The position numbers and the translations under genes were made by a program. Shown one piece after another: positions 1,149 to 28,131 of a stretch of 37,845 nucleotides of DNA. Source of the DNA: a virus (Duplodnaviria > Heunggongvirae > Uroviricota > Caudoviricetes); IMG/VR virus record IMGVR_UViG_2579779052_000009, one strand, 5' to 3'. Under the pieces are notes generated by a model. That model ran no database searches. It worked only from the letters and a program-made list of their open reading frames with translations, and was not told the DNA's origin. The first letter of the stretch is position 1; every line of letters starts with the position of its first letter.

Positions 1149-1442
1149 ATGGACAATCATGTAACGACGAGAAATCGAAAAATGATTGAAAATGCGGAAA
1201 TCTATAATGATTATTTTTCCGATTATTCAGATGCCTGCAAATACAGTTCGAGTGCGGGAGAGTTCATATGCTTCAACTTTTTTATTAAATCTTATGTTTT
1301 TCCTCCACAGCAAGAAGATGGAGGTGTGCCACCTCCTGAAATCACTTTGCACCGTATAGCCTCCGTCTCAATGATGGAGCAACAGGCTAATGAGCTGTAT
1401 AGCATTCTGGGAACGATTCTACAAAAGCGTGAATCGGACTAA
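1149..1442 (+). CDS. hypothetical protein (97 aa), divergent from com/mom
   Basis: ORF with AAGAGG Shine-Dalgarno about 5 nt upstream of ATG; AT-rich; no recognisable family. Confidence 0.4.
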   Translation: MDNHVTTRNRKMIENAEIYNDYFSDYSDACKYSSSAGEFICFNFFIKSYVFPPQQEDGGVPPPEITLHRIASVSMMEQQANELYSILGTILQKRESD

Positions 1443-1609: not shown

Positions 1610-1864
1610 TTACATCATGGTACTGTCAGTTCCGGGCTGAGCCGGGTCTGGTTGCTCTGGCTGCGCGTCGGTTTTCGGCTCATTATCAGCATCACTGGCC
1701 GCAACTGCTGGCCCAATAAGTTTTGCCAGCACTTCATCAACGTAAGTGTCGATTTGTGCCTCAAAATCCTTGCGGACCTGCGCTTTCAGTAATTTATTTA
1801 CTTCACCGGAATACAGTGCCTGTTTTACCAGGACTTCAGTGACGGTGCCTTTAATCTCTGGCAT
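1610..1864 (-). CDS. hypothetical protein (84 aa) with acidic Pro-rich C-terminus
   Basis: Canonical AGGAGG Shine-Dalgarno 6 nt upstream of ATG at 1864; no family assignment. Confidence 0.55.
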   Translation of the reverse strand: MPEIKGTVTEVLVKQALYSGEVNKLLKAQVRKDFEAQIDTYVDEVLAKLIGPAVAASDADNEPKTDAQPEQPDPAQPGTDSTMM

Positions 1865-1899: not shown

Positions 1900-2082
1900 T
1901 CAGGGCTGGGTCGGGTCTTTTGGGAGCGGAGTTGCCTGCGCTGTTTTACTGAGCTTTTCAGCTGCTGCGTCATCAATTTTGCGGCGAACATAATTTCTGA
2001 TGGCCTTATAACCACCGCTCACCAGATATAACGCACTGACCACAGTGCAGAAATAAAGCAGCATCGTATGAACAAATGTCAT
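1900..2082 (-). CDS. small single-pass membrane protein (60 aa)
   Basis: N-terminal hydrophobic helix LLYFCTVVSALYLVSGGY followed by charged tail; AAGG Shine-Dalgarno upstream of ATG. Confidence 0.4.
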   Translation of the reverse strand: MTFVHTMLLYFCTVVSALYLVSGGYKAIRNYVRRKIDDAAAEKLSKTAQATPLPKDPTQP

Positions 2083-2247: not shown

Positions 2248-4302
2248 TTACGCGTTATTCACTTCCACCACGATACTGTCAATCAGTACCGGGTAAGTCG
2301 CATTTTTAGTGATATCGGTCACGCGCAACTTGTCTGCCGTAAACGTGCCGACCGGAGACTGCGACAGCATGAATGGTGTCCCGTCCTTACCATCAATGAC
2401 CGGCGTCACCTCAATACTGTTGTTACCGGCAAAACGGAAGCCCAGCGTATGCCATTCGTTATTAAATGCGCCGAATGACCCCAGCTTCGTGTTCTGCGCC
2501 GTGTTTCCTTTGTGATACATCACGTTAAGGTCTGTGGCATCGCTCTGTACGTAGAACGATGCCAGCAGGTTATGACCGGCATTTCCTTCCAGAGTAACCC
2601 CTTGCGGCAGGGCAGAAACCGGCCAGTACAGCGCCAGTGCGTACTGATTAGCCGTAAGCGCGCCATCGAGTTTAAAACGACAACTGACAAGACCACCTTT
2701 ACCCAGCAGGTCCGCACCATTACCAGCATCATGCTCAAGGTACCAGGGGGCTCTTCCTGTTTCCTTGGTCAGTTTCATTGCCTTACCCCCGCTGGCTCCG
2801 GCATCATCCACGATTTGAGCCTTGCCACCTCCGGCAGCCCAACCCTGTGGTGTCAACCGTCCTTCAGACTCAGATGCCCGGTAAGCAAATAGCGTACTCA
2901 TCGTCGTGGTGTCTGCGGGTGGCGTGGACGGTTTTGATGGTGTATCAGGTGACGGCTTCTCATCCGGTGGTGTCACGGTCTGCCCGCGCATCAGTTCAGC
3001 CGTGCGCCCTGCATGGAGCATAATAGCTGAGGCCAGACGGTCTGAAATGACGCCCCTGCGTGCCCATGAGCTGAAATGGCTGTCACGCTGTGTCGAAACA
3101 AAACTGCCCTGGGTTCGGGATGCTGCACCGTAATACCCGACAGCCACAATATCCGGGTCTTCCGCCGGAGCATTCGTTGGCGTGCTCTGTCCATTCTCAT
3201 CCGTCAGGAACGGTACAAAGAAAATTTTCTGTGCTTCCTTGCCTTTGTAGCCACCGTATACTGCCTCATATTTATCGGTGCCAGCGTTTTTCCAGTAATA
3301 CGTGGTATCACCGCAAATCCACGGCACCGTGGTGGCATTTCCACTCACGCACTGCGCAGCAAGCGGAGCCAGGTCAGTTCTGAACTGCTGAACCATGGCC
3401 GTGAATAAACTATTATGCTGCTGGCTTCCTGAGGCAAGGTCTGCCTCTCCCTGCATCCAGACCACAGCCAGAAGTTTGTTTTTCGGGTTTTTCGCCAGCG
3501 CGACTTTGGTGCGGCTTACCAGGTCCTGATACAGAGGTTTACCGGCCCCCCAGCGTGAAGAATCAGCGGAAGCACCGCTGGCCTCACTGAATGAGCCGTC
3601 GGCTCCAGTGGTGAATGCTGACCCGCCACGACAACAGGGCACCAGAAGTATCCCCGCATTCTGTGGGATATAGGGAAGCAGTTTTTTGGCAATATGCAAC
3701 CCCTGACCGACAGTCCCGTACTGGCCTTTTGCCAGATCAGCTTTCGGGTGGTTTATCCCGCTCATATCCTGAACATCATGCAGGCAGTGGTCTGCCGGAA
3801 TGATGTCGTTGTATGTACACGACGTACCGTTGGGCGTTACCGTACTGCGGCGTGCCAGTTGCTTAATGCGTGGGTCCGGGCGGTCAAACGAATCCGGTAA
3901 CGGCAGCCCCTCGCCGTAGGCCATGCCATTTGACTGACCCGCGAGAATGACAACAAAGTAATATTCCGGCTCTGAACTGCTGCCATTCGTGCTACCGGAA
4001 GGCCCGGCGTTATCCGGTGCATTCCAGTCGGAGGGCGTGAGCGTTCCGGCCACGTCAGATGTGATTGGAATGATGCCAGTCACGCCTGAACTGGTGATTT
4101 CTGCACTGGGATTACCGGATACCGGCATTACCCATAATGGCTCTTTCGTGCTGAAGCGGATCACGCAGTCTGCGAAGGTGATCCCCCCTTTATTACCCGA
4201 AGGGCGGAAAGGGCTTTCAATAAATGCCACCGTGCCACCGGCAACCTTGACTGAAAACTCTCCGGGCATGGCGGAGAGCATTTTCCACTTGGAGTCTGAC
4301 AT
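2248..4302 (-). CDS. SASA/SGNH-type carbohydrate O-acetylesterase, multidomain (NanS-p-like)
   Basis: Central block YYFVVILAGQSNGMAYGEG resembles the GQSN catalytic-serine motif of sialate O-acetylesterase (SASA) domains; Ser/Gly- and Pro/Thr-rich linkers separate an N-terminal domain and a beta-rich C-terminal domain. Sits where the G segment and gin would be in Mu. Confidence 0.65.
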   Translation of the reverse strand: MSDSKWKMLSAMPGEFSVKVAGGTVAFIESPFRPSGNKGGITFADCVIRFSTKEPLWVMPVSGNPSAEITSSGVTGIIPITSDVAGTLTPSDWNAPDNAGPSGSTNGSSSEPEYYFVVILAGQSNGMAYGEGLPLPDSFDRPDPRIKQLARRSTVTPNGTSCTYNDIIPADHCLHDVQDMSGINHPKADLAKGQYGTVGQGLHIAKKLLPYIPQNAGILLVPCCRGGSAFTTGADGSFSEASGASADSSRWGAGKPLYQDLVSRTKVALAKNPKNKLLAVVWMQGEADLASGSQQHNSLFTAMVQQFRTDLAPLAAQCVSGNATTVPWICGDTTYYWKNAGTDKYEAVYGGYKGKEAQKIFFVPFLTDENGQSTPTNAPAEDPDIVAVGYYGAASRTQGSFVSTQRDSHFSSWARRGVISDRLASAIMLHAGRTAELMRGQTVTPPDEKPSPDTPSKPSTPPADTTTMSTLFAYRASESEGRLTPQGWAAGGGKAQIVDDAGASGGKAMKLTKETGRAPWYLEHDAGNGADLLGKGGLVSCRFKLDGALTANQYALALYWPVSALPQGVTLEGNAGHNLLASFYVQSDATDLNVMYHKGNTAQNTKLGSFGAFNNEWHTLGFRFAGNNSIEVTPVIDGKDGTPFMLSQSPVGTFTADKLRVTDITKNATYPVLIDSIVVEVNNA

Positions 4303-4606
4303 CGTCTTTTCTGCCTGTTTCTGAATTAAACAGAGTCAGAATAACAACCGCTGATAAATATGTGTTTTGCGGAAATTCAAAAAAAGCATCACGGTACTTT
4401 TTGTGACGGAGCCGGTTAGGCAGGAACATAACGACAAAGGATGGACAGGCCAATACGATAACCGCATATTACCGGCTTATAATTGATTTGACGATTCATG
4501 ACGCTGCGGTCAGCATCTGAAAATATGCGTTATTTCAGAAACCCCTTGCCTGTATATGGCGATATTATTATTCCTGTTTTTATCATTGATTTACATGGTG
4601 ATGTTT

Positions 4607-5128
4607 ATGCAACTGATTAATGTTAAACGATATTACCCGGAACAAAAACCCTTTGGTAATGATGTACAGTATTTTCAAAGTGAAGATGGTAAGGATTTCT
4701 ATGAGTCCCTGCCATTATTCACCAAAAAATATAAACTTTGCATAACCCCTGACAGCGGTGTTATCTGCTCAATATCACAGGATGCTTCGGCGCTGTATCC
4801 TGCGGGTTTTTCCGTTGTTGAGACAGACGAATTACCTGAAGGTACTGATATTTCAGGTAACTGGAAGTTTGATAATGGTGTCATCTCACAACTCCCGGTT
4901 AACTATACCAAAAAAGCGGAAGCACTGCGCCAGTCATATCTTAATCAGGCATATGAAAAGATTAATGACTGGAGAACTGAGTTACAGCTGGGCACGATTA
5001 GTGATGAAAACAGAGCTGCGCTTACACGATGGATGAAATACATCAGTCAGGTGAAAAAAATGGAACTACCAGCGATTAAAAACAAAGCTGAATTTGACGC
5101 CATTAAATGGCCGGAGAAGCCTGAATAA
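4607..5128 (+). CDS. tail fibre assembly chaperone (Tfa/U-like), opposite orientation to the tail fibre gene
   Basis: Tfa-like C-terminal region (RWMKYISQVKKMELP...WPEKPE); start moved to the internal ATG (MQLINVKRYYPEQ), because the track start adds a hydrophobic leader; convergent with the tail fibre gene. Confidence 0.55.
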   Translation: MQLINVKRYYPEQKPFGNDVQYFQSEDGKDFYESLPLFTKKYKLCITPDSGVICSISQDASALYPAGFSVVETDELPEGTDISGNWKFDNGVISQLPVNYTKKAEALRQSYLNQAYEKINDWRTELQLGTISDENRAALTRWMKYISQVKKMELPAIKNKAEFDAIKWPEKPE

Positions 5129-5162: not shown

Positions 5163-6074
5163 TCAGACGGATGAAACTGTGCGCCAGGCATTACCGATAT
5201 ATATCTGCACCGGACGGTAATAAACGCCTCCGATATTATCGGCTGAACTTTTCCCGGTATCCTGCACGTTAATGCCTGAAAGCATACAACCAGAAGGTGC
5301 ACCATAACTCCAGGACATTTCATTACCTCCGGGTGAATGGTAACTCTGGGCACCAAGCTGAACGTTGCTAACGTATTTGTTATCAGCAGTAGCTTCAGTC
5401 ATACCGGAGGTAATGTATATGTCCTGCGTCCCGTCAAAAGGAACGCCATTAATATTTCTTGGGGTGGAGAGTTTATTCGCGGCAACGGCGGTGCCGTCCG
5501 ATGGCAGAGCATTCGCCGCCTTATTCACCGTTTCCCGTAAACCGACGTTATCGATAAAAGCCCCTTTATCCGGAATGTCTGCGCCGTTCTGCTCCCTGCG
5601 CAGGTAACGGTTATCACCTTCGCTTTTGCTGTAAACATCCAGATTATTACGGGCGGTTCCCTTATTCTCCAGGTCGGCGAGATTCTGATCCTTCGCCAGG
5701 GCATTAACGTCACCGGGACCAAGACTGTTTTTTGTGGCAAGTGTCCCCAGACCAAGATAACCACGGGCCAGACGCTGGGCCTCCGCACCGGCATCAGCAA
5801 TTTCTTTCAGGTTATTTTTCCGGGAAAAGGCATTCGCAGCGATAATGGCTTTAATGGACAGCGTAAGCTGGTTTAACTGCGCCTTATCCGGCTGAATACT
5901 GGCTTCAGCCAGAATATTCAGCAGTTCGGCCTGGAGAATATTCAGCCAGTCCTGACCAATCCAGCTGATACCTTTTTGTCCGTCACCTTCGGTAAACCAG
6001 GTGGTGGTATTACTCTGCGCCGGTGCCAGCGCAGGCATATTCGCCACGCCGGAATTATTATCAACATGAAACAT
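5163..6074 (-). CDS. tail fibre protein (S-like)
   Basis: Position after the baseplate genes; Gly/Asn/Ala-rich sequence with a phage tail-fibre-like repeat region (DNRYLRREQNGADIPDKGAFIDNVGL). Confidence 0.6.
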   Translation of the reverse strand: MFHVDNNSGVANMPALAPAQSNTTTWFTEGDGQKGISWIGQDWLNILQAELLNILAEASIQPDKAQLNQLTLSIKAIIAANAFSRKNNLKEIADAGAEAQRLARGYLGLGTLATKNSLGPGDVNALAKDQNLADLENKGTARNNLDVYSKSEGDNRYLRREQNGADIPDKGAFIDNVGLRETVNKAANALPSDGTAVAANKLSTPRNINGVPFDGTQDIYITSGMTEATADNKYVSNVQLGAQSYHSPGGNEMSWSYGAPSGCMLSGINVQDTGKSSADNIGGVYYRPVQIYIGNAWRTVSSV

Positions 6075-19475: not shown

Positions 19476-19652
19476 TCCGGCAGCATAAGCCGGTGTTTTT
19501 CGGGGCCGGTTTTGCGGGACTTCAGAAAGTGCTGACAGGGGAAAAATGAGAAAGGCGCTTCACGCAGATTTTAAAGCCCGTTAAATACAGGTTAGAAAAT
19601 CACGACACGCGCCTGAAGAGGGTAAGGCAATGCGTTTGTATACCTTAAACCA
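19476..19652 (-). promoter_or_regulatory. ORF-free gap upstream of the I-like gene; candidate late promoter
   Basis: 177-bp gap between G and I; Mu has a C-activated late promoter in front of I. Confidence 0.3.
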
Positions 19653-27136: not shown

Positions 27137-27637
27137 TCAGACTTTCGGCAAATCGTAGCGACACAACCATTCATCCGCCGAACGGCGGGCCTCAAGACCG
27201 GGGAGTTTTACCCCCTTTGAATAAATCCAGCGGATATACTGCTTACAGGACCCGGGCATCTGCCCGGCATTGATAAGGCGCAGGAGCGTGGAGTTGCGAA
27301 AGTTCGTTTCACCGGCCCAGAAAATCCAGGAGGCCAGCGCCACCGTCTGACCACGGGTAAGCGGCACCTGAACATGACGATCGATAGCCGCAAAGGCCCA
27401 TTTCATGTCCTTTTCCAGCAGCTCCAGACATTCTTCATCAGTTTTTGTCATCCCCGGTTTCACATCCGGGCCGGTATGGCCGTAACAGATGGTGGGGGTG
27501 CCGGTGGGATCAATGTACGTGGTGTTTTCTTTCCCTTCCCAGTAGCCGGTGTAGTGCGTGGCAATGGTGAACGTCCCGGCTCCGGCCAGAACAAGGGCAA
27601 TCAGCTTTTTACGCAGGGGTGCGGGGAGTTTTGGCAT
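27137..27637 (-). CDS. endolysin, lysozyme-like with SAR-type N-terminus
   Basis: Lysozyme-like Glu/Asp/Thr spacing (EGKENTTYIDPTGTPT) after a weakly hydrophobic Gly/Ala-rich N-terminal segment LIALVLAGAGTFTIAT. Confidence 0.75.
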   Translation of the reverse strand: MPKLPAPLRKKLIALVLAGAGTFTIATHYTGYWEGKENTTYIDPTGTPTICYGHTGPDVKPGMTKTDEECLELLEKDMKWAFAAIDRHVQVPLTRGQTVALASWIFWAGETNFRNSTLLRLINAGQMPGSCKQYIRWIYSKGVKLPGLEARRSADEWLCRYDLPKV

Positions 27638-27708
27638 TGTTACGCTGTCTCATGGTGTTCTCTGAGTCAGCGTAACCGTGGGAAAAAGTGGGCAGGATTT
27701 GCGGAATA

Positions 27709-28131
27709 TCAGAAAAGCCGTGGCTGCGTGCGTTCCTGATGCAGGCGACGCTGGTTGCGGATAACGGAGTAAATCTGCGTCTCTGACATCTGGTAGTGGC
27801 GGCGCAGGGTTTCAATTTTTTCGCCCTGGCTCCAGCGGGAAAAAATTTCATTATTGCGCAGTTCGGTGAAAAGGGATTCACCGACCGGGAGATAATAACC
27901 ACGCCCGCCCATGTACCCGGCCTGTGCGGCTGCAACCTTACGGGCAAGCATTCCCGCCTGAGCAGGTTCAATCCCCTGACGGTGCAGTTCAGCACTGATC
28001 ACATCAACCAGGTCCCGCAGCGTGCCGGGCCAGTTCTTTTTCAGCTCATCATCAGGAATATCATCCAGACGGTCAATCAGCGCGTGCAGCTGTTCGCTGT
28101 CACCAAACATGCTCATCTGTGTTTCAGCCAT
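27709..28131 (-). CDS. Mor/C-family late transcription activator
   Basis: 140 aa; C-terminal half (SRWSQGEKIETLRRHYQMSETQIYSVIRNQRR) resembles the Mor/C DNA-binding region as recalled; located between gemA and lys as in Mu. Confidence 0.65.
   Translation of the reverse strand: MAETQMSMFGDSEQLHALIDRLDDIPDDELKKNWPGTLRDLVDVISAELHRQGIEPAQAGMLARKVAAAQAGYMGGRGYYLPVGESLFTELRNNEIFSRWSQGEKIETLRRHYQMSETQIYSVIRNQRRLHQERTQPRLF

Follow-up and report, generated by a model that had tools for sequence, protein, structure and literature searches.

A predicted NanS-p-family sialate O-acetylesterase with a lineage-specific N-terminal module in the gin–com interval of Mu-like Escherichia coli prophages

The gene at positions 2248–4302 (minus strand) of the 37,845-nucleotide viral sequence IMGVR_UViG_2579779052_000009 from IMG/VR, the whole of which is referred to here as the window, encodes a protein of 684 residues that, judged by its sequence, is a genuine phage-borne sialate O-acetylesterase of the NanS-p family, in a Mu-type variant with three modules. 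The window itself is a complete Mu-like prophage with genes for Mu transposase A and B, a Mor/C-family activator, the Mu portal, MuF, gpI, gpT and the sheath, together with baseplate genes, gp48, a tail fibre, com and mom, and an identical element is inserted in citF of Escherichia coli JE86-ST02. Taking the evidence jointly, we consider it very probable that this is a NanS-p-type esterase in an accessory cassette of a Mu-like prophage, expressed late, released by lysis and acting to de-O-acetylate its substrates, and that a deletion has removed most of gin beside it in the window copy.

We propose that the gene would be transcribed late in lytic growth under the phage C-type activator, alongside the lysis and virion genes, and that the cytoplasmic esterase would meet its substrates upon cell lysis. 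The released enzyme would strip 7-, 8- and 9-O-acetyl groups from free and mucin-bound sialic acids, opening these sugars to sialidases and to lysogenic kin that survive. Recombination with lambdoid nanS-p alleles would repeatedly have exchanged the catalytic and C-terminal parts, while the N-terminal module stayed in the Mu lineage. Action of NanS-p on free and mucin-bound sialic acids has been documented (PMC8065619, PMC8319020), and NanS-p de-O-acetylates Neu5,9Ac2 and mucin glycans and supports the growth of lysogens (PMC8065619, PMC10462455).

The open reading frame (ORF) is uninterrupted from an ATG at 4302 to a stop at 2248, and its product is named 'DUF6645 domain-containing protein' in RefSeq (WP_001284083.1). 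ORFs that overlap it on the plus strand have no homologues and are shadow frames. The original prediction had described a multidomain SASA/SGNH O-acetylesterase with a GQSN core, low-complexity linkers and a beta-rich C-terminal domain, and had proposed a profile search against SASA as a check; all of these features proved to be real. Pfam matched SASA at residues 117–312 (E = 1.5e-13), a region that includes the GQSN motif at residues 122–125, and DUF6645 at residues 533–650 (E = 7e-68), and PHROG 143 matched residues 71–684 (E = 1.7e-296).

The modules, all on the minus strand, are as follows. The catalytic SGNH type II/SASA domain comprises residues 112–430 (3013–3969), and residues 110–428 matched the structure of NanS (YjhS; PDB 3PT5) with an E value of 1.8e-117 and 57.8% identity over 315 residues. 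The C-terminal, lectin-like jelly-roll domain (DUF6645) comprises residues 469–684 (2251–2898), and residues 469–683 were 68.8% identical over 215 residues to the crystallised C-terminal domain of a NanS-p (PDB 6YP6; E = 7e-98). Two linkers separate the modules. The first, at residues 82–111 (3970–4059), is of low complexity and predicted to be disordered, with a predicted local distance difference test score (pLDDT) below 50 for residues 82–110. The second, at residues 431–468 (2899–3012), is rich in Pro, Ser and Thr and is the segment that varies most between alleles, insertions and deletions included.

Catalysis by NanS relies on Ser19 and His301, without the usual catalytic Asp (PMC9063846). 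Both residues align with identical residues in the window esterase, the presumed nucleophile S124 of the GQSN motif and H409 of an RDSH motif, and the numbering offset, read as the same for the two residues, supports this mapping. The absence of a Ser/His/Asp arrangement, which the original prediction had offered as grounds for refutation, is therefore not a valid test for this family, as NanS itself lacks the Asp. Aromatic residues proposed to bind sugar in the C-terminal domain of vb_24B_21 of phage phi24B (Y510, Y515, Y540 and F611; PMC10462455) are all kept, as Y554, Y559, Y584 and F654. No signal peptide or membrane segment was predicted in the esterase, and Pfam, PHROG and fold searches detected no tail-fibre or baseplate attachment domain.

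Homologues of the esterase were found by tblastn in 349 phage records, mostly of Shiga toxin (Stx)-converting phages, with ~65% identity over residues 94–683, and in a large protein collection some DUF1737-containing lambdoid alleles were 89–91% identical over residues ~95–684. The lambdoid NanS-p proteins, such as 933W L0105/z1466 (~65% identical) and phi24B vb_24B_21 (gp84), thus share with the window esterase the SASA/SGNH catalytic and DUF6645 lectin-like domains, the two Pro/Ser/Thr linkers, the DUF1378 and DUF826 genes downstream and, as we predict for the window gene, late expression; other lambdoid alleles reach ~90% identity over residues ~95–684. They differ in having an N-terminal DUF1737 domain where the window esterase has an unrelated, predicted six-stranded module of ~80 residues, in being carried by lambdoid phages rather than a transposable Mu-like myovirus, and in lying between stx/Q and the holin gene rather than between a gin remnant and com/mom. 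The chromosomal NanS, which lacks a canonical catalytic Asp, has the same Ser/His pair, but is a single-domain enzyme of ~326 residues, belonging to the nan regulon, without the N-terminal module, the linkers or the lectin domain. Based on 58–90% identity to characterised enzymes, we infer that the window esterase would act on Neu5,9Ac2 and on O-acetylated mucin glycans.

We then determined where in the prophage this gene resides. In the gene map of Mu, gin is followed directly by com and mom, with no gene between gin and com. In relatives of the window prophage with an intact arrangement (HH35, STEC299, 2012EL-2448, PA20 (O157:H7), UTME-3, the plasmid p8479-1 and a Mu-like element in the Stx2c phage LC727881), the order begins with tail-fibre gene S, a tail-fibre assembly gene and S'v within an invertible segment, continues with gin, the esterase, DUF1378, DUF826 and a variable small ORF, and closes with com, mom (in some cases a different methyltransferase gene) and the prophage end. 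The esterase of these relatives begins 85–100 nucleotides downstream of gin on the same strand. The order gin–esterase–DUF1378–DUF826–com, or a deletion derivative of it, was present in 9/9 E. coli loci of the Sp18 family that we sampled, and the esterase likewise lies downstream of gin in one Salmonella locus. The cassette slot is thus the gin–com interval and not the slot of gin and the G segment, as had been supposed, and a location in a Mu-like prophage, thought to be unusual, is the rule in these loci.

The esterase of the window only seems to replace gin, because a deletion of ~870 bp has removed most of this gene. Window positions 4303–4455 correspond to 5000–4855 of the STEC299 locus (L010), and 4455–4620 to 3984–3813, so that L010 3985–4854 (870 bp), comprising the first ~506 nucleotides of gin and part of S'v, is missing. 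What is left of gin is a 3' remnant of about the last 61–67 nucleotides (4388–4455, minus strand), ending at the deletion junction at ~4455. No gin was found elsewhere in the window by tblastn and no G-type inverted repeats are left in it, but a remnant of the G segment is still there. Among relatives, HCP4S3_I4 (locus L012, 1–9500) is a deletion derivative of the Sp18-family order: an IS1-mediated deletion joins the repressor, A and B to a frameshifted esterase, DUF1378, DUF826, com and mom, and all morphogenesis genes are gone. In Salmonella enterica ABQUQB010000040.1 (locus L003, 8792–10461), gin and the esterase are separated by two small ORFs, one of 58 residues that is followed by a terminator-like hairpin and one of 87 residues with a weak match to an Xre-like helix-turn-helix.

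The esterase follows the tail-fibre genes, as originally noted. These are gene S (5163–6074, minus strand; 303 residues; PHROG 1833, E = 1e-161) and a U'-like tail-fibre assembly gene of the former invertible segment (4556–5128, plus strand; Pfam Caudo_TAP, PHROG 136), which runs antisense to the late operon. Loss of gin and of part of S'v locks the tail-fibre segment in one orientation. In this locked orientation the sole tail-fibre assembly gene is antisense to the fibre gene S, and in UTME-3 the segment is flipped and the two are co-oriented; it seems that the Sp18 family has a single chaperone gene, which goes with just one fibre tip out of the two. The adjacency of the esterase to the tail-fibre/G-segment region, together with an idea raised for NanS-p in the literature (PMC8065619), could suggest that the enzyme strips O-acetyl groups from the O-antigen, K1 polysialic acid or another surface glycan and so exposes the receptor of the tail fibre. 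We regard this as very unlikely. The adjacency is explained by the gin–com slot, beyond gin and with a predicted promoter of its own, and not by membership of the tail operon; the catalytic and C-terminal domains are freely exchanged with lambdoid phages that use other tails and receptors; and the Pfam, PHROG and fold searches gave no attachment domain of a tail fibre or baseplate.

To see how common the arrangement is, we surveyed 5,426 complete E. coli genomes. Baseplate genes of the Sp18-family prophage were present in 229, DNA of the Sp18-type N-terminal module in 205 (at 246 places) and that of the window-type module in 28. As the number of genomes with a module (205 + 28) is close to the 229 with baseplate genes, the esterase cassette is standard equipment of a widespread Mu-like E. 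coli prophage family. A count of 32/5,426, obtained by blastn with a 318-nucleotide window-type probe, would have made the arrangement rare; this reading was rejected, as the probe missed most of the ~69%-identical Sp18-type copies. We found no paper linking NanS-p with Mu-like prophages in a literature whose primary NanS-p papers are known to us through reviews only. Up to 3–4 copies of the Mu-like prophage occur per genome, and at least one copy is on the 167-kb plasmid p8479-1, a distribution in keeping with active transposition. In protein databases, many esterase entries break off at the end of a contig; the probable cause is that several nanS-p paralogues in one genome disrupt short-read assembly.

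Sp18 of the O157:H7 strain Sakai is, by an earlier description, a Mu-like prophage that appears intact and has an invertible region for host specificity (PMC2669165). We equated the prophage of PA20 (O157:H7) with Sp18 by family resemblance; the O157:H7 prophage of the family carries the same esterase, with a module 60% identical to that of the window. The Sp18 orthologue (of the WP_010917876.1 type) has the same three modules, cassette and gin–com position and the same kind of upstream element. Its identity to the window protein is ~60% in the N-terminal module and 69% in the core, since the core and C-terminal domain of the window protein come from a different, lambdoid-like allele. Sp18 also keeps gin and a complete invertible segment, both of which the window prophage lacks.

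The N-terminal module (residues 1–81; 4060–4302, minus strand) sets the Mu-type esterases apart. Protein homology to the DUF1737-containing lambdoid NanS-p is lost before residue ~95–110, and at the DNA level the 88% identity to lambdoid alleles is confined to window positions 3970–2225, from codon ~111 to just past the stop. The first ~81 residues matched nothing in Pfam even at E ≤ 10, DUF1737 included. An exhaustive HMMER search of 1.84 billion representative sequences matched the module only to its own fragments and to one 30%-identical protein, the truncated start of a SASA esterase from a Mu-like prophage of Salmonella enterica, again downstream of gin. A word-index search with the N-terminal 110 residues returned fragments only, apparently since candidates were limited to proteins of similar length; a profile search with the module had the same limitation, yet recovered the Sp18 and Salmonella types and resolved four lineages (window type, Sp18 type and two Salmonella types). 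A contig scan with the N-terminal alignment, in which the back-translated patterns came from the catalytic motif, picked up just two loci, neither of them relevant: the NanS of a Proteus chromosome and a metagenome-assembled genome of Bacillota. Every copy of the module that we found comes from a Mu-like prophage of E. coli, Shigella or Salmonella, with 30–60% identity across lineages and conserved positions at W6, G14, GG22–23, F27, P34, LW56–57, V61, G63, P65, G73 and I78.

AlphaFold, given a six-sequence alignment of the module, predicted a six-stranded, all-beta domain at residues 7–79 (block pLDDT 72–87) followed by the disordered linker, and the same strands appeared in a low-quality model of the full-length protein. 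This predicted, cupin-like small barrel is unlike the fold of DUF1737, which consists of one helix and three strands (bioRxiv 10.64898/2026.04.10.717836). Fold searches with the module gave no specific match; the structure prediction originally suggested for this region yielded an all-beta fold, but no resemblance to a tail-fibre attachment domain. Between the window and STEC299, the module showed nonsynonymous (dN) and synonymous (dS) divergence of 0.005 and 0.35 over 81 codons (dN/dS 0.015), and between the window and the Sp18 type dS was saturated with a dN of 0.28, indicating that the module is under strong purifying selection. It looks to be a new, previously undescribed domain that takes the place of the lambdoid capsid-binding DUF1737. 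Capture of the 5' end of a resident Mu gene was considered as its origin and rejected, as Mu has nothing between gin and com; the lack of any other protein with the module, its 30–60% identity across lineages and its low dN/dS also speak against such an origin.

We compared the regions upstream of the esterase, lys, I and com within the window for shared elements. An element of ~20 nucleotides, TTTYTGAWNTYCCGCAAAW, was common to the regions upstream of the esterase, lys and I, and the pairwise alignment scores esterase/lys, esterase/I and lys/I were above those of all 100 shuffles. Exact copies lie at 4365–4383, 19510–19528 and 27697–27715, all on the late-gene strand, and in all three regions a −10-like block, TTAYKCTG, follows 21–22 nucleotides downstream. 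The two-block pattern CGCAAA-N17-24-TAYKCTG occurs 3 times in 37.8 kb against 0.08 expected, a count reached in 0/100 shuffles, and the 3/3 occurrences are upstream of lys (27668–27703), I (19481–19516) and the esterase. The esterase copy (4337–4383, minus strand) consists of TTTTTGAATTTCCGCAAAA, 21 nucleotides and TTATTCTG, and ends 35 nucleotides upstream of the ATG; the gin–esterase spacer has blocks that the window and Sp18 types keep in common. The lys copy stands directly after the Mor/C-family gene (27709–28131), as Plys does after C in Mu, and the Plys and PI regions of Mu contain a related CCCGCAC core. The late promoters of Mu, as Margolin, Rao and Howe are said to have reported in 1989, depend on C and carry a conserved sequence.

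As a two-block element like those of lys and I stands in front of the esterase too, we infer from the sequence that it has its own C-type late promoter and would be expressed in lytic growth. Mu has the late operons Plys, PI, PP and Pmom under the activator C, and the esterase would be an additional late transcription unit. Expression of lambdoid nanS-p is likewise late and induction-dependent, rising on induction (PMC10462455, PMC8065619), but from the Q-antiterminated pR' promoter instead of a putative Mu-type late promoter. The putative lys and I promoters (27668–27715 and 19481–19528, minus strand) have a longer sequence, TTTCTGAnnTnCCGCAAAnCCnGCCC, in common. With the patterns used, the regions in front of the tail genes and com yielded no counterpart of it. 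A fourth, imperfect upstream block, TTTCTGAAATAACGCATAT (1 mismatch; 4523–4541, minus strand), lies in the G-segment remnant ~140 nucleotides upstream of the esterase promoter element, with no matching −10 block. The region upstream of the Salmonella esterase does not contain the E. coli late-promoter motif.

These data also bear on whether the esterase could be expressed from the repressed prophage, as a lysogenic-conversion gene of the moron kind that lets the intact lysogen use O-acetylated sialic acids without lysis. The gene gin is expressed in Mu lysogens, in intact relatives the esterase comes just after it, read in the same direction, and the terminator scan picked up nothing strong in the spacer. 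NanS-p alleles, moreover, allow nanS-deficient lysogens to grow on Neu5,9Ac2 (PMC8065619). On the other hand, an intact cell would first have to import the substrate of an esterase that has no signal peptide, a scan for consensus sigma-70 promoters and terminators around the esterase gave nothing convincing, no sigma-70-type promoter being found upstream, and the upstream element that is conserved is of the late type. In the window copy the gin promoter region is itself deleted. We therefore consider expression from the repressed prophage unlikely.

The two genes that accompany the esterase encode a DUF1378 protein of 60 residues with an N-terminal hydrophobic helix (1900–2082, minus strand; Pfam E = 5e-35) and an acidic DUF826 protein of 84 residues (1610–1864, minus strand; Pfam E = 1.2e-14). 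The lambdoid gene order is Q, methylase, nanS-p, DUF1378, DUF826, holin and endolysin, and Pascal et al. likewise note ORFs of DUF826 and DUF1378 in the interval from nanS-p to S (PMC10462455). The trio of esterase, DUF1378 and DUF826 is thus found in two unrelated phage backbones. As lys (27137–27637) is ~23 kb from the cassette in the Mu-like backbone, DUF1378 and DUF826 evidently accompany the esterase, not the lysis genes, which points to a possible functional link among esterase, DUF1378 and DUF826. PADLOC and NCBIfam gave no relevant match in the cassette.

The com and mom genes follow within positions 1–937 of the minus strand (com at 692–892 and mom at 1–738 in RefSeq), as assigned from the Pfam Mom match (E = 1.6e-77), the RefSeq annotation of the identical locus and the Mu gene map. 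Between DUF826 and com lies an orphan ORF of 97 residues (1149–1442, plus strand; 86 residues in RefSeq, WP_000571916.1) without a match in Pfam, PHROG, NCBIfam or PADLOC. Sp18-type prophages have a different ORF of ~154 residues in this place, often frameshifted, and STEC299 has an extra ORF of 66 residues, making the gap a small variable region beside the cassette. In LC727881 (locus L006, 9420–10472), the place of mom after com is taken by an ORF for a 350-residue protein resembling a DNA cytosine methyltransferase; it appears that the DNA-modification gene in this position can be exchanged.

Different parts of the cassette gave opposite signals of relatedness. The core and C-terminal domain of the window esterase are 88% identical in DNA to lambdoid alleles against ~70% to the Sp18 type, whereas DUF1378 is 65% identical in amino acids to the lambdoid copies and 88% to the Sp18 type, and DUF826 47–51% and 76%, respectively. 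The most economical interpretation is that the Mu-like lineage has long carried the whole cassette, in which the core and C-terminal domain were probably overwritten later by recombination with a lambdoid allele. Strain M3 contains a Mu-type copy together with a ~90%-identical lambdoid allele, so that donors and recipients co-reside. In STEC299 (L010 5001–7133), the esterase has 710 residues, a module 99% identical to that of the window and a C-terminal domain that is 35% identical and still DUF6645, which indicates domain shuffling within the Mu-type esterase.

Such recombination could also have left nothing but decaying, non-functional cargo from a lambdoid prophage. The window prophage has lost gin, and HCP4S3_I4 has a frameshifted esterase beside its IS1-mediated deletion. 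However, the ORF is intact in the window and in more than 200 genomes, dN/dS is 0.015–0.13 across the structured modules, the catalytic and binding residues are kept and the upstream promoter element is conserved. Decay is disfavoured, and we give it next to no credence.

A predicted late promoter and a lineage-specific module fit both of the roles originally suggested, in host fitness and in the virion. According to a 2026 preprint, the NanS-p homologue gp84 of phi24B is a virion protein whose DUF1737 forms hexamers on the capsid hexons (bioRxiv 10.64898/2026.04.10.717836). A lambdoid capsid anchor on one side and a Mu-specific module on the other lead to the testable idea that the N-terminal module decides which virion the esterase joins. 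The Mu-specific beta-barrel would then be the counterpart of DUF1737 and tether the esterase to the Mu-type particle, at capsid hexons or another exposed structural protein. The replacement affects exactly the capsid-binding domain and ends where the catalytic domain begins; the module was seen in Mu-like prophages only, in four diverged lineages from E. coli/Shigella and Salmonella; it is kept while the core and C-terminal domain are swapped, as in STEC299; it is under strong purifying selection; and the late-type promoter predicts co-regulation with the head and lysis genes. These points are circumstantial, no structural similarity supports the module as an anchor, and we put the idea forward tentatively, as possible but not probable. 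It is compatible with release of a late-expressed esterase at lysis and would extend it, perhaps giving a phage with a mucin-binding, de-O-acetylating decoration, an outcome for which our expectation is equally guarded. With the same reserve, NanS-p proteins in general may be modular virion decorations with the N-terminal domain as a lineage-specific anchor, DUF1737 for lambdoid phages of the phi24B type and the beta-barrel for those of the Sp18 type.

Several points weigh against the explanation that we prefer, a late-expressed and lysis-released NanS-p-type esterase. The activity and expression of the esterase in Mu-type copies are read from sequence, and the full-length AlphaFold model (mean pLDDT 43.9, from a 16-sequence alignment) is too poor for active-site geometry. 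Assignment of the promoter depends on motifs common to several regions of a single prophage and on the parallel to Mu, and the gin deletion, only ~70 nucleotides upstream of the promoter element in the window copy, could affect the promoter. Simple release at lysis also leaves the role of the N-terminal module unexplained.

What looks new is therefore the N-terminal module and the putative Mu-type late promoter of the esterase itself, the rest being known from NanS-p. NanS-p has so far been treated as a lambdoid, Stx-phage-associated fitness factor. Our analysis suggests that NanS-p is also encoded by a conserved late gene of a second, unrelated phage family, in which the N-terminal module is another one and specific to that lineage. 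This family, the Mu-like Sp18 group, is present in ~4% of complete E. coli genomes, including that of the O157:H7 strain PA20. Should the anchor idea be wrong, the esterase would be one more accessory enzyme of a prophage family already known. If it is right, the catalytic and lectin modules would move by recombination among phage families that are not related, each of which keeps its own adaptor, and the esterase would serve the phage particle, in adherence to or penetration of mucus, as much as the lysogen.

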